Below are positions 15-57,913 of a DNA stretch of 58,177 nucleotides, piece by piece. Source of the DNA: a virus. Its lineage: Duplodnaviria > Caudoviricetes. Positions within the stretch are counted from its first letter, which is position 1; every line of letters starts with the position of its first letter. A program made the position numbers and the translations under genes. The notes beneath the pieces are model-generated. The model did not search any database. It was given only the letters and a program-made list of their open reading frames with translations, and was not told the origin of the DNA. The stretch covers positions 1-58,177 of the IMG/VR virus record IMGVR_UViG_3300033987_000092; one strand, given 5' to 3'.

Positions 15-57
15 AAAAACCCCGAAAACCCCTATTCTTCAAGGGATTTCGGGGTTT
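15..57 (-). terminator. Intrinsic terminator of the integrase gene
   Basis: Inverted repeat AAACCCCGAAA(17-27)/TTTCGGGGTTT(47-57) overlapping the int stop; U-run on minus strand from A15-19. Confidence 0.6.
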
Positions 58-1150
58 CGTTTTCACTTGTGGCATTATTTTGGCATTGGGATTCTACATT
101 TCTTAATTTTTGTAATTCCTCAGCTAACTGGATTCCTTTATTAGGATAAAGATGTGCATATGTTTCCATAGTAGTCTGCACACTTTCATGTCCTAGGCGT
201 TCTGAAATAAGAAGTATTGGCTGGCCCATTTCTATCAGTAATGAAGCGTGAGAATGGCGCAAGTCATGAACCCTTATCCTTTTTACGCAGGCTATCTTTG
301 CAAAGCTATCTAAATTCTTGTTGAGAGTAGTTTTAGTAAAATAGAAAACTTTATCAGTATCTTTGATTTCATACAATGAATTAAGATACTCCTGAATTTC
401 ATTATAAAGGAAATCCGGTATCGGTACTTTACGGGCACTCTTTGTGGTTTTAGGATCATAAATGCGGTCCTCACCATTTTTGCGAGATGCAGTTTTATTC
501 ACATCTATAATCTTAGTATCCCAAATATCTTTAGGTGTGAGGGCTATTGTTTCTCCGACTCGCAATCCTGTCCAAAACATTATTTCGAAAGCTAGCTTTA
601 TGGCTGGTTTATCAACTACTTTAATAAATTGCTCAAATTCATTAACGGTCCAAATCTCCATTTCATCTGCTTTTTTCTTTCCTATACTGCCAGCTTTACG
701 AACAGGATTTTCGGGTAGCTTATAGTATTTTACTGCATAGTTAAAAATGGCACTTAATTGATTATTTATCGTTTTGAGATAAGTAGGTGAATAATCATTT
801 TCATTTGTTATAAGCTTGTTTTGCCATTTTCTAACATGAGTTGCCTCAATCTTATTCAAAGGCAACTTTTTGAAAAAGGGGAGGATATGGGTATCAATAA
901 TATTTTTCTTTGTATCCATAGTGCTTCCTTTTAAACGGGCAGATACATCTTCTAAATAAAGTTGCACAAGGCTTTCAAATGACATATCGCAGCTTTGTTT
1001 GGATTTATTAAGGAATTCTCGCTCATAATCCTTAGCATCTTTTTGCTTGGTAAATCCTCTTTTCTTTTTAAGTTTACGTGTACCGGTCCAGTCTGTATAA
1101 TAAAAACTTGCATACCAAGTGCCACGTTTTTCATCTTTATATACAGGCAT
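32..1150 (-). CDS. int: Tyrosine integrase with N-terminal arm-DNA-binding domain
   Basis: Catalytic motifs TGLRVGE, HDLRHSHAS, RLGHES..T..TYAH; N-terminal 'WYASFYYTDWTG..KKKRGF..QKDA' arm-binding type domain. Confidence 0.97.
   Translation of the reverse strand: MPVYKDEKRGTWYASFYYTDWTGTRKLKKKRGFTKQKDAKDYEREFLNKSKQSCDMSFESLVQLYLEDVSARLKGSTMDTKKNIIDTHILPFFKKLPLNKIEATHVRKWQNKLITNENDYSPTYLKTINNQLSAIFNYAVKYYKLPENPVRKAGSIGKKKADEMEIWTVNEFEQFIKVVDKPAIKLAFEIMFWTGLRVGETIALTPKDIWDTKIIDVNKTASRKNGEDRIYDPKTTKSARKVPIPDFLYNEIQEYLNSLYEIKDTDKVFYFTKTTLNKNLDSFAKIACVKRIRVHDLRHSHASLLIEMGQPILLISERLGHESVQTTMETYAHLYPNKGIQLAEELQKLRNVESQCQNNATSENETPKSLEE
67..87 (+). repeat. Integrase arm-type site (left)
   Basis: TTGTGGCATTATTTTGGCATT, 20/21 identical to 57925-57945; internal tandem TGGCATT at 11-bp spacing. 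Confidence 0.7.
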
Positions 1151-1204: not shown

Positions 1205-1783
1205 TTATTTATCATTCTGACTTCTACGTAAATACATATCAAGTCGAGCGAATATTGATTCAATCCTTTCTTGTAGTTCAGTATCAGAAAGTCTGTCCTG
1301 CTGGTGACGCTTCAAATGTTCTACATTTTTTCCATTAAGCCATTTATTAAATTTCCTTTTGATGATTTCATATCTATGGCTTACTGCATAAAGGAAATGA
1401 ACATACTTATACCTTTCATCTTCATAGACAACATATTTGTTGAAATCAGGATCGTTTCTGCTTTTGTCATATGTAAGCAGGTAATTCTTTGTTGAGAGAA
1501 TATTTTCATAGTATGATATGTATTCTCCCCAACGGTTAAGGTAGTCGAGCATAGAAAGCCTTAATGTTATTAAAAGTTTGTCAAATTGCTCAAATTCTTT
1601 ATCGGTAAGCTTGTCTTTGTTAATTTCTAAAATGCTATAGCAGTAATCAGCAAAATCTAATCCGGACTCATAATTTCTTGTGTAAGTAAAAAATTCATGG
1701 ACAAAATTACACAAAGGATAACTTAAAAGCTCTTTAAGAGCGATTAAAGGATCTATATACTTTTTTAAGTACCCTTGAAGCAT
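1205..1783 (-). CDS. Hypothetical accessory protein (AT-rich, lysogeny operon)
   Basis: 192-aa ORF co-oriented and tightly packed between int and upstream genes; no family recognised. Confidence 0.7.
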   Translation of the reverse strand: MLQGYLKKYIDPLIALKELLSYPLCNFVHEFFTYTRNYESGLDFADYCYSILEINKDKLTDKEFEQFDKLLITLRLSMLDYLNRWGEYISYYENILSTKNYLLTYDKSRNDPDFNKYVVYEDERYKYVHFLYAVSHRYEIIKRKFNKWLNGKNVEHLKRHQQDRLSDTELQERIESIFARLDMYLRRSQNDK

Positions 1784-7724: not shown

Positions 7725-10700
7725 TGAAAATTCTTCATACATCCGACTGGCATATAGGGAATTATCCAGGACCCGAAGAAAACGGAGTCAACCTTCGAGG
7801 CAAGGATATATACGATTGCTTGCGTTTCATGACTGAAAAGGCTAAAGATGAACAACCAGATTTAATTGTTGTATCAGGTGATATATTCCATGCAGCTAAG
7901 GTATGGGCAGACAGAGGCCTGAATGAAACCTATAATGCCATCAACATTATAAAAGGCCTATCGGAAATTGCTCCTGTATGTGTGCTTCGTGGCACACCTA
8001 ACCATGATGGAGAGGAACAGTTCAAGATGTTGCAGGAGGTTTTTAAAGAGGAGCCAGCTATTACTATTTTCGATACCCCCCGAGCCGAGGTAATAAGTAC
8101 AAAAAGCGGTAACATTAATGTTGCCGCTCTCCCCGGCTTTGATAGAGGTGTATTCAGAGCTAAATTCCCGGGACTGTCAAAGGAAGAAGAAAACCAGGTA
8201 TTCACCGAGGAACTCGGAAAAATCGTACTTAGCCTAAAGGCAATGTGTCACCCAGCTTATAATTCAATCCTCTTGACACATTATACAGTACCTGGTTGCA
8301 ATACAGAAAGCGGACAGACACAATTCCTTGCACAGTTTGAACCCGTACTTCTTCCAGAGGCGTTGGATGCGGCTGGCTTTGATTTGGTAGCATTAGGCCA
8401 TATTCATAGACCACAGCAGGTAACCAGCTGTCTTAATACTTACTATGCTGGAGCTATAAATGCTTTGAATTTCAACGATGAAGGACAGGAACGCGGATTC
8501 TGGATACATGACTTTGAATATGGAACCCATGATTTCATAAAAACACCGCATAGAGAATTCAAAACCATCCGCATGTCCAACGAAGATATTGCTGCATTCA
8601 ACCTTGGCAGTATAGATGATGTTGCCACTAAATTATGGCGAGGTGAAATTGAAGGCAAAATTGTAAGGGTTCTTTATAACTGCACTGATGAATTAAATAA
8701 AGCCTTAAATAAAGCAATCCTTGAAAAAGAGTTATATTCAGACGGTGCATTTTGGGTACAGGAAATCACTCCTGAAAAAATCTTAATTACTGCAAACAGG
8801 AATGACCTTTCTGAAAGGAATTCCCCGGAGAACAATCTGAGAGAGTACCTGATAGAGAAGGCAATACCTGATGATAAGATAGTTGACATCATAGAAGCTG
8901 CACGGCCTATTATCGCCGAAGCTTCAGCAAACAGTATTACTGCATCTCTTACCGGTTTATTCGTACCGGTTGAAATTGAAGTGAAAAATTACAGAAATTA
9001 TCCGGAAGAGACCTTCAACTTTGATGATATTACTTTCTGTACCATAAACGGTCCTAATGGCGTAGGTAAAAGCTCACTGTTTATGGATGCCATCCTTGAC
9101 TGCCTCTATGAGGAACCAAGAGAAGGGGACATCACCGGGTGGATCAGCAACAACGAGAAAGCCCGTTCCGGAAGTATAAAATTTACCTTTAAGATAGGTG
9201 AAAGGACTTTCCGGGTTACAAGAACCAGGGCAAAAAGCGGTAAAGCAACGCTTAACCTGTCTGAGCTCGTAGACGGTGAATGGATAAACAGATCCAAGGA
9301 ACGCATGAACGATACCCAGGCTGAAATTATTAACATTCTCGGCATGGACAGCCTTACCCTGAGGAGCTGCGCCCTCATCATGCAGGACCAATACGGTTTA
9401 TTCCTCCAGGCTGATAAGGAAAGCAGAATGAGCATCCTCGGCAATATTCTTGGCCTTGGGATTTATGAAGACATGGAAAACATAGCAAGGGATAAGGTGA
9501 CAGAGCTTAACCGCCAGATTAGGCAAAACAACGATCAGATAGACAAACTCTCATTAACTCTTCCTGATGAGGAAGAAATTCATAGGAATATTGAAGCAGC
9601 TGAAATATCTATTGAGGCAAATAACCAAAAGATTAAGACATTCACTGATGAAGCTGACAAGCTTAAGCTTCGGTTAAATTCAAAGCTGGAGGCTGCTACA
9701 CGGGCCTTAAAGCTTAGCGAAGGTATTAACACCTTAAATAAGAAAAAGGCTGATGTAGAAGCCAACAGGAGCGCTCAGGTTGATATCCTGAACAACTCCA
9801 ACATCATTCTTTCACAGGAAAGTACCATTGTTGCCGGAGTTGCCAAGTATAATTCCTTACTGGCTCAGGAAAAGGAACTCATTACCGGCAAGGCTTTATA
9901 TGATGCGAAGAAAGCCGAATATCAAAAGCTTGTTGCCGATATTGAGGCTACCCAGGCAGAGATTGCAAGGCTGAACACTGAAAAGACCTCACTGGTAAGT
10001 AAGAAAAAGCCTTATGAAGATAAGGTTTCTATGGAAAGCCAGCTCAAGGCAAAGCATGAGCAATATACCACCGAAAAAGCAGCTCTCTCCATTCTCGAGG
10101 AGAAAGCAGGGGAATATATACGGGTCAGTAATGAGATATCTGCAGCTGAAAGACAGAAAGCCGTACTGCAGTCCCAATATGATACTGAGTACACCAGGCG
10201 CATTACTGAATATAGAAGCCTTAAGGAAAAGGCAGCTTTACTTGATAACAGCGGTTGTATTGATAAAGCAAATGCCAGATGCCGTTTCCTTGCGGATGCT
10301 CAGGATGCTAAATCAAAGCTGCTCCCATATAAAGATGACTGCCAAAAGTGGCAGGCAGAACAAAAGGTAAAGCTGGAAGAGGCTCAGAAGTACATTGATA
10401 CTCTTATTGATAGGCGTAACGCTTTAGGCTACAACCAGGAGACCATCAACAGCAAACGTGCTCTCATTTCAAGCCTTGAAAAAGCCTCAAAAGAGTATGA
10501 AGCAATACTGGGATACAAGGAGCAAATAAAGCTTATAAATGAACGCATACAAGCCATTGACAGTAAGGTTAACGAGCTGCAGGACAAGCTTAATGGTTAC
10601 ATCAAAGAAAAAAAGGTTGCCGGACAACAGCTAACAGAAATGAAAGTTGCAGCTGACAAGTATAACTCCCTTGTATTGGAGATTGAAGCTGCTAAGTCAT

Positions 10701-48962: not shown

Positions 48963-49294
48963 TAGTCATTGAAAAGAATGTAGGACCAAAGATTGATTAC
49001 ACCGTTACAGGTACAAAAATCAACTTTGCTGGTGAAATCACATTGGATTTGAGCAAGTATGAGCGTGATTTTGCAGTGCATCTTGACATATGCCAGGATA
49101 AGTTTGGCTTTTTTACTATGGGGCTTTCAGACAGATATGTTGCTCAGATAGATATTCCGGAAAGGCAGTACAATATGGAGGAAAATGGAACTGATGAAGA
49201 GGGAAATCCAGTTATGCAGCCTGTTCCGATTCCTTTTAACATGGATAATGTAACGCTCACACTTTGGAGAATGGAGGGGTTGAATAATGCCTAA
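48959..49294 (+). CDS. Hypothetical tail protein upstream of DGR target
   Basis: ATGA overlap, GGAGG RBS. Confidence 0.65.
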   Translation: MIVIEKNVGPKIDYTVTGTKINFAGEITLDLSKYERDFAVHLDICQDKFGFFTMGLSDRYVAQIDIPERQYNMEENGTDEEGNPVMQPVPIPFNMDNVTLTLWRMEGLNNA

Positions 49295-50390
49295 TTTTGA
49301 TGATTTGAAACTTACTGTTGAGGCTCTTTCAGGCGGCAAAAATACTGTGCTGCTTGATGACCTTGGGATGCCTTCTATCATGGTGAAAATCCCTAAATTT
49401 AAAATATCTGATGTTATCACAGGCGGACCTGATACAACGCATCCTGCCTTTATTGTTAATGGAGTTGAAAAAGATGCAATATACATTAGCAAATATCAGA
49501 ATATAGTTATGAATGGCAGAGCCTACAGTCTCCCTCATAAAGACCCTGCAGTCTATACGAACTTTGATCAGGCTAAATCTTATTGTGAGGCAAAAGGCTT
49601 AGGGTGGCATCTTATGACCAATGCAGAATGGGCAGCTATCGCTTTGTGGTGTAAGAAGAATGGATTCATGCCTCGTGGGAATAACAACTATGGCGCAGAT
49701 ACATCTGCTGCTCATGAAAAGGGTGTAATGACATGGATGTATGATGCAACGAGGATAGGGCGTGTTGCAACTGGTTCCGGACCTGCGTCATGGGCGCACG
49801 ACAATACCAATGACGGGATATTTGATATGAACGGCAATGTGTGGGAATGGGTTGGAGGATTGAGATTGAAAAACGGAGAAATCCAAATCATTCCGAATAA
49901 TGATGCAGCTCAGGCTATTAACCAGAGCGACACAAGTACTTACTGGAAAGCAATGCTTCAGGATGGTAGTCTTGTCGATCTAGGTACGGCAAACACACTC
50001 AAAATAGATAATACTACAGCCGGAAGTTCTGCTCAGGATGGTAACGATGTTGGTGGAGATCCTATACTGAATACAACAAGAGATAATCCGATGTATACCG
50101 GCGGTGATGTTAATGATAATTACAGGTATAGCGCTTGTAGCTTTGAAACGTTTGCAGCAAAATCAGGGGTAACCGCTCCTACATTGTTAAAGGCTTTGGG
50201 GCTTTTCCCTATTGATGCAAGCCATGGTGGAGATGTTTTATATGTTAGAAACTATGGAGAGAGACTCCCGCTGCGCGGCGGCAATTTCGCTGATGGTGGT
50301 TCCGCCGGGGTTTTCGCCCTCTTTTTGATCAATGATCGTACTTCTAGCGACAACTCTGTCGGGTTCCGCTCCGCTTTTGTAAATCTGTAA
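49287..50390 (+). CDS. DGR target protein, C-type-lectin/FGE-sulfatase fold (Mtd-like putative receptor-binding protein)
   Basis: 'ISKYQ', 'WHLMTNAEW', 'DMNGNVWEW', C-terminal RGGNF...VGFRSA; 3' end is the VR. Confidence 0.93.
   Translation: MPNFDDLKLTVEALSGGKNTVLLDDLGMPSIMVKIPKFKISDVITGGPDTTHPAFIVNGVEKDAIYISKYQNIVMNGRAYSLPHKDPAVYTNFDQAKSYCEAKGLGWHLMTNAEWAAIALWCKKNGFMPRGNNNYGADTSAAHEKGVMTWMYDATRIGRVATGSGPASWAHDNTNDGIFDMNGNVWEWVGGLRLKNGEIQIIPNNDAAQAINQSDTSTYWKAMLQDGSLVDLGTANTLKIDNTTAGSSAQDGNDVGGDPILNTTRDNPMYTGGDVNDNYRYSACSFETFAAKSGVTAPTLLKALGLFPIDASHGGDVLYVRNYGERLPLRGGNFADGGSAGVFALFLINDRTSSDNSVGFRSAFVNL
50269..50375 (+). repeat. DGR variable repeat (VR)
   Basis: 107 bp, 95/107 identical to 50896-51002; all 12 differences are at TR adenines. 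Confidence 0.97.
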
Positions 50391-50409
50391 TCTGGTGCAC
50401 TGTAATCTG

Positions 50410-50435
50410 TTTCTCCCGCCGATAGGCGGGAGAAA
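50410..50435 (+). other. DGR target-recognition hairpin downstream of VR/IMH
   Basis: TTTCTCCCGCC-GATA-GGCGGGAGAAA perfect 11-bp stem, 4-nt loop, about 20 nt after the target stop. Confidence 0.8.
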
Positions 50436-50531
50436 AATTTTTAAATCTAAAATAACGCATTGGGTTATAATTTAACAATTATCCAAAAATGAAATATTTC
50501 CTGCTAAAATTTATGAGATGGGGGGAGATGC

Positions 50532-50870
50532 GTGGGTGAAGAATTAAAAATACTTCAAAAAGTATACGATATGATAAAGTATGGATATCAAGCTCTTGCA
50601 CAATTTCCCAAAAGTGAAAAGTTTGCATTAGCAGCAGATATAAAAAGATGCATGCATTTGATCCTTGAAAGGGTTATTGAAGCGAATAAAAAATACTATA
50701 AAAAAACAACTCTTCAGGAATTAGATGTAGAAATTATGAAACTCAAAGCATATCTGCGGTTATCTCAGGAGTTAGGTTTTTTGCCATTTAAAAAGTATGA
50801 GATATGGTCAGAAAAAGTAGTAGAGATAGGTAAGATGCTTGGAGGATGGATTAAGTCAACAAATAAATAA
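50532..50870 (+). CDS. avd: DGR accessory variability determinant
   Basis: 112-aa basic four-helix protein 'FPKSEKFAL..I..LQELDVE..LRLS..L..KKYE..EIGKMLGGW' between target and TR. Confidence 0.93.
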   Translation: MGEELKILQKVYDMIKYGYQALAQFPKSEKFALAADIKRCMHLILERVIEANKKYYKKTTLQELDVEIMKLKAYLRLSQELGFLPFKKYEIWSEKVVEIGKMLGGWIKSTNK

Positions 50871-50895
50871 TAAAATATTGGGAACAGGATGTCAG

Positions 50896-51002
50896 CGCTG
50901 CGCGGCGGCAATTTCACTAATGGTGGTTCCGCCGGGGTTTTCGCCCTCAATTTGAACAATGAACGAACTAATAGCAACAACAATGTCGGGTTCCGCTCCG
51001 CT
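50896..51002 (+). ncRNA. DGR template repeat (TR), part of the DGR RNA
   Basis: Adenine-bearing copy of VR (24 A, 9 AAY codons) between avd and RT. Confidence 0.95.
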
Positions 51003-51168
51003 CTACTCTCGCAGTCAGATGTAGTATACTCATGGGTATACTTCCAGTACGGAGAGATTAAAGGATCCTGTTTCCATGCCGAAAGGCAAAAAACTGAAAT
51101 GTTATGAATGCCGAAAGTAGCCATAGTGCAAAATCCGCAACGCATAACATTTTTTTACGGGAGGAAAT

Positions 51169-52281
51169 ATGAAATACATAAAGAATCTCTACGATGATAT
51201 ATGTACCTTTGAAAACCTATATTTAGCATATAAAAACGCAAGAAAAAATAAGAGGTTTAGGGATGAAGTACTGGAATTTTCATCAAATGTGGAAGAATAT
51301 TTAATGGATATACGCAAAGAACTTATCGAACAGACTTATAAAGTTGGTAAATACCGAGAATTCTTTGTATATGAGCCTAAAAAAAGGCTGATAATGGCTT
51401 TGCCTTTTAAAGACCGGGTTGTTCAATGGGCAATATATCAAAAACTTAATCCATACTTTACAAAAGGTTATATATCTGACAGTTTTGCTTGTATAGAAGG
51501 CAGAGGAGCTCATCAAGCTGTCCAAAGATTGCATTACTGGCTAAGGCAGATAGGTAGAAAACCAGGTAAATATTATTATCTAAAGCTTGATATTTCAAAA
51601 TATTATTACAGAATTGACCATGACGTTTTAGTAGAAATTCTCTCAAGAAAGATAAAAGACACCAAATTGATGAAGCTTCTTGAGGGAATTATCCGGTGTG
51701 AAGATCATAGCTTTGGCCTCCCTCTCGATGCAAGCCTTGAGGAAACAGATGTTAGGATAAACAATAAAGGAATGCCTATCGGTAACTTAACCTCACAGAT
51801 GTTTGCCAATATCTATTTAAATGAACTGGACCAGTATGTAAAAAGAAAACTCAGGATTCATTATTATGTTCGATACATGGATGATGTAATTATTCTGCAT
51901 GAGAGCAAACAGGAACTACACAAAATAAAGAAAGTGATTGAGACTTTCCTTGATGAGAAGCTGAAGCTTAATCTCAACAACAAAACTGCCATAAGACCGG
52001 TTACCCTGGGGATTGAATTCGTCGGATACAAGGTATGGAATACCCATATAAAGCTGCGAAAAAGCACAGCTCTTAAGATGAAACGAAGGTTAAAACATCT
52101 TAAGAAACAGTATGAACGGGGAGAAATTGAGATTGAGGATGTAAGAGCAACAATGGCAAGTTATAATGGACTGATGAAGCATTGCAATAGCTTCAGGCTC
52201 CGAAGTAAACTGTATGACACATTGGTTTTTACAAGAAAAAGTGAACCAGATAATGATGATGAGAATGGTGGATGTGAATAA
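51169..52281 (+). CDS. DGR reverse transcriptase
   Basis: EPKKRLI, FKDRVVQ, KLDISKYY..IDH, GMPIGNLTSQ, YVRYMDD, FVGY; no maturase or endonuclease domain. Confidence 0.96.
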   Translation: MKYIKNLYDDICTFENLYLAYKNARKNKRFRDEVLEFSSNVEEYLMDIRKELIEQTYKVGKYREFFVYEPKKRLIMALPFKDRVVQWAIYQKLNPYFTKGYISDSFACIEGRGAHQAVQRLHYWLRQIGRKPGKYYYLKLDISKYYYRIDHDVLVEILSRKIKDTKLMKLLEGIIRCEDHSFGLPLDASLEETDVRINNKGMPIGNLTSQMFANIYLNELDQYVKRKLRIHYYVRYMDDVIILHESKQELHKIKKVIETFLDEKLKLNLNNKTAIRPVTLGIEFVGYKVWNTHIKLRKSTALKMKRRLKHLKKQYERGEIEIEDVRATMASYNGLMKHCNSFRLRSKLYDTLVFTRKSEPDNDDENGGCE

Positions 52282-54682: not shown

Positions 54683-54946
54683 ATGGCGATTAGAATTTTA
54701 CTGTCCAAGAAACTTGGCGAGCTTCGATGGACACAAGCCGATCTTGCACGAAAGACGGGAATACGCCCTACCACAATCAATGAGATGTACCACGAAATCA
54801 TTGAGCGTGTTAACCTTGAACACTTAGACTTGATTTGTGAAGCACTTGATTGTGATCTTTCTGAAATATTGGTGCGTATCCCCAACGAAGTACCCAAACT
54901 GGGTAATCGCTCTCGTGCGGGGGAAACAAAAACTGAAGATGAATGA
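54683..54946 (+). CDS. Cro/C1-type HTH regulator (HTH_26-like)
   Basis: WTQADLARKTGIRPTTINEMY..LDLICEALDC. Confidence 0.88.
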   Translation: MAIRILLSKKLGELRWTQADLARKTGIRPTTINEMYHEIIERVNLEHLDLICEALDCDLSEILVRIPNEVPKLGNRSRAGETKTEDE

Positions 54947-54962
54947 AAAGGTGTTGCAGCGC

Positions 54963-55178
54963 CTATTCATCTACCACTGGCGCCTCTCGTGGGGCGCCTT
55001 TCCCTTGCCATAAAAAAGTACCTTCATTGTCAGCCACTCCAAAGTTTATTCCGGGATATTTCTCTGTGAGGCTCTTACCGGTCTGAATAAGGCTCTGGCT
55101 TTCATAGCTTTTTGTTACCTGGAGCCACTTGCCATTTTTGCCTTGCTTCAGTAGGTAGAACTCCTGCAGCTCCGACAT
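54963..55178 (-). CDS. Hypothetical protein
   Basis: GGGAGGTG RBS before ATG 55178. Confidence 0.6.
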   Translation of the reverse strand: MSELQEFYLLKQGKNGKWLQVTKSYESQSLIQTGKSLTEKYPGINFGVADNEGTFLWQGKGAPREAPVVDE

Positions 55179-55311
55179 CCATATCACCTCCCTTCAAGTG
55201 AAGTGGGAGGACCTTTTTATGACTGTTTAAAATGATACCGTTAAACTCAAAATAATTCAATTGTCAACGAACAATCTATGTTAAAGGGGCGCCATCTTTT
55301 CCCCTGTAGCG

Positions 55312-55376
55312 ACGGGTGTCCCGCTATCCCCTTTCGGGGATTTCGGCCGGTACCCATCCGGCCATCATCAGGCGGG
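55312..55376 (-). ncRNA. Type I hammerhead ribozyme with loop II-3' tail pseudoknot
   Basis: Minus strand: CCCGC CUGAUGA U GGCCGG AUGGGUA CCGGCC GAAA UCCCC GAAA GGGGA UA GCGGG AC ACCCGU; full core and three perfect stems. Confidence 0.9.
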
Positions 55377-55389
55377 TTGGTATTTAAAA

Positions 55390-55734
55390 TTATTCTATAT
55401 ACTCAACTTTTGTTGCCAATGTTTTAGAATCTTCATATAGACCGAGTTGAAATACTTTTCCGATATAATATTCGCTTGCTTCAGTCATAGTACCATTAAA
55501 TTTTGTGACTAAATAATCTCCATTTTCAAAATGAACCTTAATAATGATTGGCTTCGGGGATTTCAAATATTCCTCTAGTTTTTTTATACAGTCACGAAAG
55601 CTGTATGCAGACCAGTACCACCCTGTCTTGACATCTATGACATGTTCTATTTCTCCGCTCATTGTTTGCCAGCGTTTAATTTCTCTTTTTTCTCCGTTGC
55701 TTAAAGTAATAATTTCTCTGTATTCCTTTGCCAT
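55390..55734 (-). CDS. Hypothetical protein
   Basis: AAGGGTGG RBS before ATG 55734; stop 13 nt upstream of the ribozyme. Confidence 0.65.
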   Translation of the reverse strand: MAKEYREIITLSNGEKREIKRWQTMSGEIEHVIDVKTGWYWSAYSFRDCIKKLEEYLKSPKPIIIKVHFENGDYLVTKFNGTMTEASEYYIGKVFQLGLYEDSKTLATKVEYIE

Positions 55735-55780
55735 AATAACCACCCTTTCTGCCGGGGTTTTCCTCCCTGCTCGGTACTTG

Positions 55781-56062
55781 TTAAATTCTTGGAGTAAGTA
55801 ATTTTTTTATCTCAATTCCATCGATAAACCCCTGTTTATAGACCTCTCTTTCAATAATAATATGCATTTTATCATTTGCTATCACGTACTCATCAAAGAG
55901 TTTTAAAAACTGTTCTTTAATAGTATTTGGAATCATACATTTAATGGCATCGTAAGCCTGATCTACTTTGTTAAATTGTTCTCTGTACCCCTGGTCTTTT
56001 AAATATGACCGAGATTCAGATACCTCCTTTATTCTTTGGTCTATAATGGTAGATTTTAACAT
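55781..56062 (-). CDS. Hypothetical protein
   Basis: AGGAGGTG RBS; C-terminal 'YKQGFIDG' motif. Confidence 0.7.
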   Translation of the reverse strand: MLKSTIIDQRIKEVSESRSYLKDQGYREQFNKVDQAYDAIKCMIPNTIKEQFLKLFDEYVIANDKMHIIIEREVYKQGFIDGIEIKKLLTPRI

Positions 56063-56236
56063 AATAGCACACCTCCTAAAAAAAGATTATGATTGTATAT
56101 AATTTGATTACATTATACATTAAAATGATTACATAGTCAACAACAAAATGTTCTTATTTTGATTATGTTTATAATGTATATATTGATGTTTATAATCAAA
56201 TATGTTACTATAAATTTGTAGAGAGGATGTGTTATA

Positions 56237-56563: not shown

Positions 56564-56917
56564 ATGCTTATGAGTTGGACGATTGATTTTTACAAAACTG
56601 AAGATGGTAAAGAACCTGTATCTGATTTTCTTGACAGTTTGCCACGAAAGCATAAAGCCAAAGCATTTTGGGAGTTGGATTTATTAGCAGATAAGGGCAT
56701 AGAACTTAAAGAACCATATGCAAAGCATATTGAAGACGAACTTTGGGAGTTAAGGATAAAGTTTGCAAGCAATATTTCAAGAGTGTTTTACTTTATTCCA
56801 ACCGAAACAAAAATTGTTCTTTTGCATGGTTTTATTAAGAAAACAAATAAAGCCCCTGTAAATGAGATTGAAACAGCTAAGAAACGGTTAGAAGATTATA
56901 AAAAGAGGTGTTTGTAA
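56564..56917 (+). CDS. RelE/HigB (Gp49-like) toxin
   Basis: FYKTEDGKEPVSDFL..EPYAKHI..LWELRI..RVFY..LLHGFIKKTNK.P..EI.TA..R. Confidence 0.9.
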   Translation: MLMSWTIDFYKTEDGKEPVSDFLDSLPRKHKAKAFWELDLLADKGIELKEPYAKHIEDELWELRIKFASNISRVFYFIPTETKIVLLHGFIKKTNKAPVNEIETAKKRLEDYKKRCL

Positions 56918-57189
56918 TGACTTTTGAAGAGTATAAGAAAAAAGCATTTGCTGAGGACCCAGAGCTTTATAAAGAGTACAAAGCTCTAGAACCTGAATAT
57001 GAAATTATCAGACAAATAATTAAAGCTCGTAATGAGTTGAACCTTACTCAAAAAGAGCTTGCAGAAAAAATAGGCATAAAACAGAGTAATATCAGTAGGC
57101 TTGAGAGCGGAAATTATAACCCTTCACTTGATTTCTTGAAGAAGGTAGCTCAGGGTCTTGGCAAGGAGCTTCATATCGAGTTTAGGTAG
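56917..57189 (+). CDS. HigA-like XRE antitoxin
   Basis: EY.ALEPEYEI..IIKAR..LTQKELAEKIGIKQSNISRLESG..PSL; toxin-first order. Confidence 0.9.
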   Translation: MTFEEYKKKAFAEDPELYKEYKALEPEYEIIRQIIKARNELNLTQKELAEKIGIKQSNISRLESGNYNPSLDFLKKVAQGLGKELHIEFR

Positions 57190-57207
57190 TATTTAAGGTG
57201 ATAGAAA

Positions 57208-57375
57208 ATGATGAGGAATAGTGAACCAAGAGACATGAAGGAAGTCCATGATATCAGAAAGGCGATAGCAGAAGAAACAAAGAACCTTTCTCCAAAAGAA
57301 AGAGCGGAGCTCACGAATAGGGAAGGTAGAGAAATTGCAGAGAAATATGGACTAAAAATTGTACAGAGGGTATAA
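57208..57375 (+). CDS. 55-aa hypothetical protein, missing from ORF track
   Basis: AAGGTGA RBS; MMRNSEPRDMKEVHDIRKAIAEETKNLSPKERAEL... Confidence 0.55.
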   Translation: MMRNSEPRDMKEVHDIRKAIAEETKNLSPKERAELTNREGREIAEKYGLKIVQRV

Positions 57376-57382
57376 TTGTTTG

Positions 57383-57416
57383 GTAGGCTACCCTGGGTAG
57401 CCTACTGTTTACTTTT
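57383..57416 (+). terminator. Palindromic terminator-like element
   Basis: GTAGGCTACCC-T-GGGTAGCCTAC followed by TGTTTACTTTT. Confidence 0.55.
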
Positions 57417-57424
57417 GTAAAGGA

Positions 57425-57913
57425 ATGAGTAATATGGCAGCAAACAAGAGAAAATGTGACGATATTTATAAAAATCTCAATAATCTGACACAAGAAAAGA
57501 GTGAAGTGATAGACTCAAAGATTCAAGCTATCGGCGAGGCATTGATTAAGTTTACTTATTTAGCTGTATTTGAACCGTCAGAAAAAGGCTATCGTGTATA
57601 TTTTCCTGACCTTCCCGGATGTGTGAGTTATGGAGAGAATTTTGAAGAGGCACTGGGGAAAGCTGCAGAAGCTTTATATCTTCATATATCAGGCTTGGAC
57701 AAGGACGGGAATGATATACCGGCTCCATCAGAGAATCCAGAAGTGGATCCAGCTACATCTACAGGCTATATTATTGTTCCTGTGACAATTACTTTTGACT
57801 GGGACAGTGATTTTACAAAATTAACACCTGCTGAAAGGGAAAGCCTGGACAAAGCTAGAAAAGAAATAGAGAACGGTGAGATAGTGGATGATACTGAAAT
57901 AGACTGGAGTTAA
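57425..57913 (+). CDS. HicB-domain protein with N- and C-terminal extensions
   Basis: YLAVFE..GYRVYFPDLPGCVSYGENFEEAL..A.EAL core. Confidence 0.8.
   Translation: MSNMAANKRKCDDIYKNLNNLTQEKSEVIDSKIQAIGEALIKFTYLAVFEPSEKGYRVYFPDLPGCVSYGENFEEALGKAAEALYLHISGLDKDGNDIPAPSENPEVDPATSTGYIIVPVTITFDWDSDFTKLTPAERESLDKARKEIENGEIVDDTEIDWS

Follow-up and report, generated by a model that had tools for sequence, protein, structure and literature searches.

A type I hammerhead ribozyme with a loop II–tail pseudoknot, located behind a small leftward gene of a temperate phage or prophage

The window, by which we mean the whole analysed stretch of 58,177 nucleotides, carries on its minus strand a complete type I hammerhead motif, the loop II of which can pair with the tail that follows stem I. 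We are almost certain that this is a real hammerhead maintained by selection for its fold. The explanation proposed for the locus as a whole, i.e. a self-cleaving type I hammerhead held by a pseudoknot and acting in the way outlined below, is given with moderate confidence, while for the job itself the sequence data speak, on balance, for mRNA 3'-end formation or insulation. Besides the integrase listed in Table 1 the viral record encodes a portal gene, a diversity-generating retroelement and a lysis cassette, so that the label "temperate phage or prophage" is fair, and the prophage setting with a leftward block of small genes assumed in the earlier note is supported. The same note spoke of a GC-rich island in AT-rich DNA lying 13 nt past the stop of the upstream frame. 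Both descriptions are correct: G+C content is 66% in 55312–55376 compared with 35% in 55377–55800 and 45% in 54900–55282, and stem I begins 13 nt after the TAA.

Each base and coordinate of the stems, core, extra U, GAAA and AUA cut on the minus strand, as they had been drawn from inspection of the sequence, was reproduced in our analysis, and the 6-bp pseudoknot with one G–U pair between AUGGGU of loop II and the tail ACCCGU is present as proposed. According to the conserved-core criteria taken for the class test from the main text of Perreault 2011 (PMC3088659), all 13 positions (C3 U4 G5 A6 N7 G8 A9, G12 A13 A14 A15.1, U16.1 H17) are occupied as expected. The helices comprise 5 (stem I), 6 (stem II) and 6 (stem III) base pairs, and the topology is that of type I, in which stem I is the open one, stems II and III end in loops, and the sequence located 3' of stem I pairs with loop II. 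The core region is not free of insertions, as the extra U (55364) stands between A9 and G10.1. An additional nucleotide at this very place was found in 53 of the 56 relatives described below (U in 52 of them and G in one). In a viroid hammerhead an insertion at this position is tolerated. An extra nucleotide of this kind is the topic of De la Pena and Flores 2001. Stem III of the window has U15.2–A16.2 at the position where C–G is present in 26 of the 27 aligned sequences.

Table 1. Features of the ribozyme locus and of two cultured-phage hammerheads (positions refer to the window unless an accession is given)
Feature	Positions	Strand	Remarks
Viral record			58,177 bases; estimated 93% complete
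Tyrosine integrase	32-1150		
Complete type I hammerhead with pseudoknot tail	55312-55376	minus	Read directly from the sequence
Stem I, 5' strand CCCGC	55372-55376	minus	Pairs with GCGGG 55324-55320
Core C3-A9 and extra U	55364-55371	minus	CUGAUGA 55371-55365; extra U 55364 before G10.1
Stem II and loop II	55345-55363	minus	GGCCGG 55363-55358 / CCGGCC 55350-55345; loop AUGGGUA 55357-55351
GAAA	55344-55341	minus	G12 A13 A14 = 55344-55342
Stem III	55341-55326	minus	AUCCCC-GAAA-GGGGAU
Predicted cleavage site	55324-55325	minus	A17 (55325) / G1.1 (55324), triplet AUA; from hammerhead geometry
Stem I 3' strand, linker and tail	55312-55324	minus	GCGGG 55324-55320, linker AC, tail ACCCGU 55317-55312
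Conserved core positions	55371-55365, 55344-55341, 55326, 55325	minus	
Downstream hairpin	55285-55305	minus	AGGGG-(11 nt)-CCCCU, then 2-3 U; 19 nt past the cut
Conserved box	55264-55281	minus	ACATAGATTGTTCGTTGA; single occurrence in the window
First ORF of the leftward unit	55781-56062	minus	93 aa; weak DUF6809 match below cut-off
Upstream ORF	55390-55743	minus	117 aa from GTG 55743; 114 aa from ATG 55734; stop TAA 55392-55390
Downstream ORF	54963-55187	minus	74 aa from GTG 55187; ATG at 55178
Promoter-like site	56112-56140	minus	TTGACT-17-TATAAT; 11 of 12; consensus match only
Weaker promoter-like site	55232-55260	minus	TTGAAT-17-TATCAT; 9 of 12; between ribozyme and next ORF
Hammerhead of Faecalibacterium phage FP_Brigit	MG711465: 52972-53045		Cultured phage; fills the gap between two same-strand CDSs
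Hammerhead of Flavonifractor phage Castelnaud	ON453903: 1216-1294		Cultured phage; strand opposite to all annotated CDSs

When the tail was omitted, the three-stem hammerhead came out as the structure of minimum free energy (−29.7 kcal/mol). Once the tail is added, a calculation that is free of pseudoknots marginally favours a non-hammerhead fold (−31.4 versus −30.8 kcal/mol), and the loop II/tail pseudoknot, which amounts to approximately −6.5 kcal/mol as a duplex, would outweigh this alternative. There is also another partner for the tail. At the very 5' end of the 3' cleavage product GCGGG/CCCGU can form a hairpin of 5 bp with a 3-nt loop, and RNAfold of this product draws exactly this hairpin. 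An alternative 5'-terminal hairpin of at least 4 bp is available in 32 out of 57 hammerheads of the family, a number that was reached by none of 2000 tail permutations, although kinship among the sequences lowers the weight of this result. Pairing of the tail with stem I may drive release of the product, cap the new 5' end or give rise to an inactive conformer.

Chance resemblance, or mere G+C-rich hairpins devoid of catalysis, can be effectively excluded as the origin of this motif. Our own type I descriptor, which requires stems of at least 4 bp and the canonical core and scans both strands, registered exactly one site in the window and none in 300 dinucleotide-preserving shuffles. The covariance model R1, trained on 40 relatives that included neither the window nor its two near-identical kin, gave a single match in 58 kb (55379–55308 of the minus strand, 66.6 bits, E = 8.9e-19) and no further matches in the window up to E = 10. 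Against chance also speaks the fact that the core nucleotides are all invariant and all helices covary. Two observations favour it, namely the extra U in the core region and the silence of Rfam. The hammerhead models of Rfam 15, an Infernal search with which had been suggested in the earlier note as a check, matched nothing in the window at the gathering score; in a search of 401 nt with E ≤ 10 no family of any kind appeared at the site, and RF00163 (Hammerhead_1, gathering score 34 bits) used alone did not match the window either. The claim that the element matches the type I consensus holds, therefore, by the descriptor and fails by the very model proposed to verify it. However, Rfam at the gathering score is equally blind to all descriptor-defined hammerheads in 17 related loci, and for this reason we take its miss to mean that the models do not see this subfamily, not that the sequence is at fault. 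A second ribozyme in the window was indicated neither by the descriptor nor by model R1 or Rfam. The sole Rfam match in the 17 loci is a twister-P5 ribozyme, which lies about 300 nt downstream of the hammerhead in locus L006.

The patterns by which relatives of the ribozyme were fetched came from the core, stem II or tail of the window itself, and independent tests of the fold are consequently limited to stems I and III, position 17 and the pseudoknot. A pattern containing nothing except the core and stem II retrieved 30 copies in 29 viral contigs, and all 31 copies, the window included, possess in addition 4 or more pairs in stem I, the A15.1–U16.1 closure of stem III and C or A as H17. Many of the relatives are close kin, and the counts given here and below are not numbers of independent events. 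When 27 distinct sequences were aligned, 96.8% of cells proved to be paired, and both sides had changed in 9 pairs; neither value was reached in 500 shuffles, and controls with slid partners were paired to 22–44%. Double changes were registered at all five pairs of stem I and at four of the five pairs of stem III, that is at 9 of the 10 variable pairs of these two helices. Covariation of stem II was seen in the set collected by the tail pattern, where it takes such forms as GGCCCG/CGGGCC, GAUCUA/UAGAUC and GGCCUG/CAGGCC.

The set used for family-wide counts consists of 57 distinct hammerheads, i.e. 56 relatives found by the descriptor in the fetched loci plus the window; one AT-rich descriptor match (L034) was left out as likely chance. 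A pseudoknot of at least 4 bp can be formed in 43 of the 57, and 37 different helix sequences are used for this purpose (GGG/CCC, UGGUU/AACCA, UAGCUA/UAGCUA, UUGAC/GUCAA and UUAUUU/AAAUAA among them). Loops II pair with their own tails over 4.25 bp on average compared with 3.54 ± 0.09 bp for permuted tails (0 of 2000 permutations as high), the 6-bp helix of the window being among the longest in the family. The same core and stem II are present in 17 contigs of bacterial genomes, mostly of Paenibacillus and Cohnella and in some Clostridia-type MAGs, and in locus L193, labelled as a Clostridiales MAG, both the ribozyme and the upstream sequence are identical to those of the window. The subfamily is found mostly in Bacillota phages and prophages. 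Blastn of the whole 901-nt region against GenBank phages returned no match. With a 98-nt query the weak matches to GenBank phages turned out to be real hammerheads in four phage groups; short matches of this query in Klebsiella phages were discarded as chance. Several contigs have two or three hammerhead copies on one strand.

Position relative to genes is another common property of these elements. In 53 of the 57 hammerheads the ribozyme is preceded, on its own strand, by an open frame of 45 codons or more, and in 40 of the 57 the stop codon ends no more than 10 nt before CUGAUGA (9.7% at random positions of the same loci), the UGA of the core itself being this stop codon in 8 cases out of the 40. 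In most members a ribosome-binding site and a start codon follow 20–55 nt past the cut. The window represents the loose end of this range, with 18 nt between the stop codon and the core and 137–146 nt between the predicted cut and the next start codon, and it lacks the close fit between a stop codon and a ribosome-binding site that is seen in most relatives. The three small leftward ORFs gave no above-cut-off families in Pfam, PHROGs, PADLOC and NCBIfam, and no relatives of the upstream protein were found among phages (tblastn) or viral contigs. The C-terminal part of this protein resembles small proteins encoded downstream of hammerheads in L164 and L155 (BLASTP E-values 2e-11 and 9.5e-7, respectively), and this resemblance points to a common pool of small accessory genes that would be reshuffled around the ribozymes.

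Behind the predicted cut there is a short hairpin, the helix of which (55305–55285) was predicted by RNAalifold on 17 sequences. Three of its five pairs are changed on both sides (none of 500 shuffles reached this score), and the compensatory forms AGGGG/CCCCU, CAGGG/CCCUG, AGAGG/CCUCU, CGUGG/CCACG and AUGGG/CCCAU were observed. Within the family a hairpin followed by U's is located at +17 to +24 from the cut, mostly at +17 to +19, in 17 of 56 members compared with 5.4% at random positions, and three unrelated types of hairpin sequence occupy the same slot; the hairpin of the window narrowly misses the U-count rule applied in this estimate. It does not look like an intrinsic terminator, having a stem of 5 bp and a loop of 11 nt and leaving the terminator scan silent. 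Since in many relatives the next gene starts just 35–45 nt past the hairpin, it must often be read through and can hardly be a strong terminator. A second helix, CGCU 55311–55308 with GGCG 55293–55290, which would convert the hairpin into a pseudoknot, was rejected: its support is one compensatory change, common to three close relatives, and with loops of 2, 7 and 0 nt the coexistence of both helices looks impossible on steric grounds.

The hairpin is followed by the conserved box, which also stands behind hammerhead-plus-hairpin units in L012, L014, L027, L089, L146, L151, L164 and L193. A search of viral contigs with the pattern TATAKATTGTTCKTTG gave 117 parsed matches, nearly all of them chance-like, and among these a hammerhead-plus-hairpin unit precedes only those in L089 and L146. 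Two more loci (L124 and L143) were flagged by a crude filter and discarded, as there is no hammerhead in them. The hexamer TTGACA at 55267–55262 was considered as a −35 box and dismissed: no consistent −10 element accompanies it in the window or in the relatives, and in many of the latter the next start codon is too close.

Comparison with closely related DNA revealed mosaic boundaries at the locus. Relative X5 is approximately 97% identical to the window, with 38 differences over 1301 nt; among the 37 listed none falls into 55283–55453, and the segment 55225–55282 is dense in changes. The stretch of the promoter-like site 55260–55232 has many substitutions in X5 and is replaced in L193. Homology with relative X6 starts at 55313, the last base but one of the ribozyme, and breaks again at 55224. 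Contigs of four sequencing runs were compared with the window. In those of the two RNA-library runs among them the downstream gene is found in other contexts, and they cover only 54902–55224 of the window, short of the ribozyme. The earlier idea of a leftward operon with two cistrons flanking the ribozyme is uncertain here. The leftward block of small genes is there; the downstream gene looks like a separate module, as indicated by the hairpin, the box, the promoter-like site, the gap of 137–146 nt and the breaks of homology at 55313 and 55224.

Based on placement between genes in the family and on the literature, it is plausible that the ribozyme separates the fates of flanking genes. In the window it probably marks the 3' end of a two-gene unit and insulates the next module, and does not split a tight bicistron. 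Leftward transcription would start, probably, from the promoter-like site 56140–56112 and give a message of two genes (56062–55781 and 55743–55390) with the ribozyme as its 3' untranslated end. Folding co-transcriptionally, the ribozyme would then cut between A55325 and G55324. The ribozyme fold, compact and finished by a 2',3'-cyclic phosphate, would form the end of the upstream message and leave it hardly any single-stranded tail, which should shield it from 3' exonucleases. The downstream RNA, which would begin with a 5'-hydroxyl and carry the hairpin, the box and, in the case of read-through, the next gene, would thereby be uncoupled from the upstream unit. In Bacillota such 5'-OH ends are known to let RNase J1 enter, and this one may do so too unless the RNA refolds into the GCGGG/CCCGU hairpin.

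The same set of data admits a more elaborate scheme, in which the ribozyme and the hairpin with its U-tract constitute a composite end-of-unit device, used for torpedo-like termination or for setting the level of read-through. We regard it as rather doubtful. A covarying hairpin at a narrow offset in 17 of 56 members, the sharing of this offset by three unrelated hairpin types and the backing of the helix by RNAalifold and pair counts are in line with such a device, as is the weakness of a 5-bp hairpin with an 11-nt loop as a lone terminator. The hosts, moreover, are mostly Bacillota, where RNase J1 degrades 5'-OH products of ribozymes; the torpedo version, for which our expectation is likewise low, would have the 5'-OH exposed on the nascent RNA and RNase J1 entering there and chasing RNA polymerase slowed at the weak hairpin. 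However, the hairpin is missing from two thirds of the family, a terminal hairpin that would hinder a 5' exonuclease can arise at the newly made 5' end, and the next gene located 35–45 nt past the hairpin in many relatives leaves no room for a promoter and forces read-through. Only tentatively can one speak of a module of Bacillota temperate phages in which a hammerhead, a covarying hairpin/U-tract and a box of about 18 nt tie cleavage to the end of the transcription unit. It could operate through entry of RNase J at the 5'-OH, or the tail could leave the pseudoknot and refold into a hairpin capping the 5' end of the downstream RNA. If true, this would be an undescribed ribozyme-based way of ending or insulating bacterial transcription units.

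Mosaicism of the locus invites a different interpretation, namely that the element is a conserved intergenic linker or a selfish passenger, the invariant stretches of which aid recombination of accessory genes, with little or no benefit from cleavage. Near-identical ribozyme cores do sit between unrelated gene pairs, the homology of one relative starts exactly at 55313 with another break at 55224, and a domain of the upstream protein of the window is found downstream of hammerheads in L164 and L155. Nevertheless, we consider it unlikely: all three stems and the pseudoknot have undergone compensatory changes, which means selection on the RNA fold rather than on DNA identity, and the strict rule that the element follows a stop codon on the same strand speaks for a function at the transcript level. 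Linker and transcript role are mutually compatible. Adjacency to stop codons can also be viewed as a sign of a translation-sensitive switch, where the terminating ribosome covers the 5' strand of stem I, so that its 3' strand pairs with the tail and cleavage is blocked; cutting would then report whether the upstream gene is translated. Such a switch would profit from the stop codon abutting or overlapping the ribozyme in 40 of 57 members and from the choice of the tail between loop II and the 3' strand of stem I, which is open to 32 of the 57 (none of 2000 permutations of the tails gave as many). But the stop codon of the window is 13 nt off, at the edge of the ribosome footprint, tight packing of phage genes could by itself explain the adjacency, the double complementarity may just reflect G-rich and C-rich strands in one related subfamily, and a single folding event suffices for an irreversible cut. 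Altogether this makes the switch, and its reporting function with it, very improbable, and we return to 3'-end formation or insulation as the preferred job of the ribozyme.

The role of hammerheads in prokaryotes is presented as an open question in the 2017 review PMC6155905, in passages that also stress the link with phages, and the locus of the window leaves the question of their role in bacteria and phages unanswered. It adds testable points: in most members the upstream stop codon coincides with, or includes, the start of the ribozyme, and in a third the hairpin and the box are present. Since Rfam 15 is blind to the whole Bacillota-phage subfamily, automated annotation undercounts these ribozymes. 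The subfamily extends to cultured phages of the gut bacteria Faecalibacterium and Flavonifractor, which offers a practical system for following the fates of cleavage products.

Thousands of hammerheads were reported by Perreault 2011 (PMC3088659). Its main text describes pseudoknots that connect stems I and II in approximately 40% of representatives, each of the three topologies among them, and disruption of which lowers the rate 20- to more than 100-fold, as well as prophage hammerheads that flank genes, often in several copies, cleave in vitro and in E. coli and have no known function. Pseudoknot-stabilised hammerheads of phages and prophages are, therefore, already known, and the window provides a new example, not a new type of element. 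It shares with those described there the canonical core, the three stems, the base-paired contact that holds stems I and II parallel, and the location between small prophage genes, sometimes with several copies per operon and with an unproven role. In contrast to that collection, the window is an individual new locus, and its subfamily has, relative to what the main text describes, the extra nucleotide between A9 and G10.1, a 6-bp stem II, a pseudoknot made with the 3' tail and, in a third of members, the conserved hairpin and box past the cut. The words "stop codon" and "terminator" are absent from that main text, and its supplementary alignments may already contain such sequences. With RF00163 (Hammerhead_1) the window has in common the open stem I topology and the core, but the model fails to score it at E ≤ 10.

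In the "PK hammerhead", the structure of which was solved by Zhan 2024 (PMC11300833), a pseudoknot made with an added stem-loop (helix IV) takes the place of helix II, and the resulting fold is pistol-like. A hammerhead core and a 6-bp pseudoknot as the tertiary element are common to both, whereas the ribozyme of the window keeps an ordinary 6-bp stem II hairpin and only the loop of this hairpin pairs with the tail. Membership in this pistol-like, RAGATH-1 type of ribozymes was ruled out by the regular 6-bp stem II, and no Rfam family was found at the site. A comparable case is that of B. subtilis, where, according to the summary of Collins 2007 given in PMC3328962, RNase J1 degrades the 5'-OH fragment released by the glmS ribozyme. 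Common to both is that self-cleavage of a Bacillota mRNA, predicted here from the sequence, yields a 2',3'-cyclic phosphate and a 5'-OH, the latter deciding, for glmS in that summary, the fate of the downstream RNA. Unlike the window's hammerhead, glmS belongs to another ribozyme class, depends on a metabolite and acts in a 5' leader; neither a ligand nor regulation is indicated in the window. Close counterparts are the hammerheads of the cultured phages FP_Brigit and Castelnaud, both unannotated in their records (MG711465 and ON453903). In Castelnaud the UGA of the core doubles as the stop of an ORF that the annotation lacks, and the ribozyme is followed by the same kind of hairpin. Both ribozymes belong to the subfamily of the window and share with it CUGAUGAU, a GC-rich stem II and the CCCG tail, while the genes that flank them are different.

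The stretch between the hairpin that follows the ribozyme and the downstream gene (window 55225-55282) was registered as a hotspot of change. It accommodates 17 of the 37 listed differences between the window and its close DNA relative X5, and in three loci (L193, which carries a Clostridiales MAG label, and two further relatives, X6 and X15) it is substituted by other sequence. Among the relatives with readable sequence at the ribozyme, namely the near-identical X5 and L193, the ribozyme itself was found unaltered.

In the locus 1000-1320 of Flavonifractor phage Castelnaud (ON453903) all annotated CDSs lie on one strand. The opposite strand contains a hammerhead and a hairpin, together with one or more ORFs; one of these is preceded by a ribosome-binding site and has the UGA of the ribozyme core as its stop codon. 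The deposited annotation of this locus is probably wrong.

A second, atypical hammerhead-like unit is present in L014 (2860-2990, plus strand), where a small extra hairpin GCGCGCAAGCGC is inserted between CUGACGA and a stem II-like hairpin; on the 3' side of this unit lie the hairpin and box that also occur in L012, another hammerhead-bearing locus. Our type I descriptor, which requires stems of at least 4 bp and the canonical core, did not detect it. In L157 a further CUGAUGAG core starts directly after the box, approximately 40 nt past the hairpin and box (locus ~8020-8060, minus strand), and this locus may represent a tandem of the type hammerhead - hairpin - box - hammerhead.

Two other groups of genes were observed in the window: a diversity-generating retroelement (DGR) at 49287-52281 and a set of toxin-antitoxin-like genes that occupies 56564-57913, towards the phage's right-hand end. 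Weinberg 2017 catalogues the RT motifs near reverse transcriptase genes with no role assigned to them. The RT-14 RNA of the window has a clear DGR context.

Coordinates of the DGR components and of the toxin-antitoxin-like genes in the window
Feature	Position	Remark
Target-like protein with FGE-sulfatase/C-type-lectin-like domain	49287-50390	DGR component
bAvd	50532-50870	DGR component
RT-14 RNA	51006-51147	Rfam, 80.3 bits; immediately upstream of reverse transcriptase
Reverse transcriptase	51169-52281	DGR component, directly after RT-14 RNA
RelE/ParE-like or phage Gp49-like ORF	56564-56917	
XRE-type HTH ORF	56908-57189	
HicB-like ORF	57425-57913	

A ribozyme of another class was registered in the viral contig L006, where the hammerhead at position 1100 is accompanied, about 300 nt downstream on the same strand, by a twister-P5 ribozyme (1404-1456, plus strand; Rfam, 56.8 bits). 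Hammerhead and twister-P5 are a known pairing of ribozyme classes.
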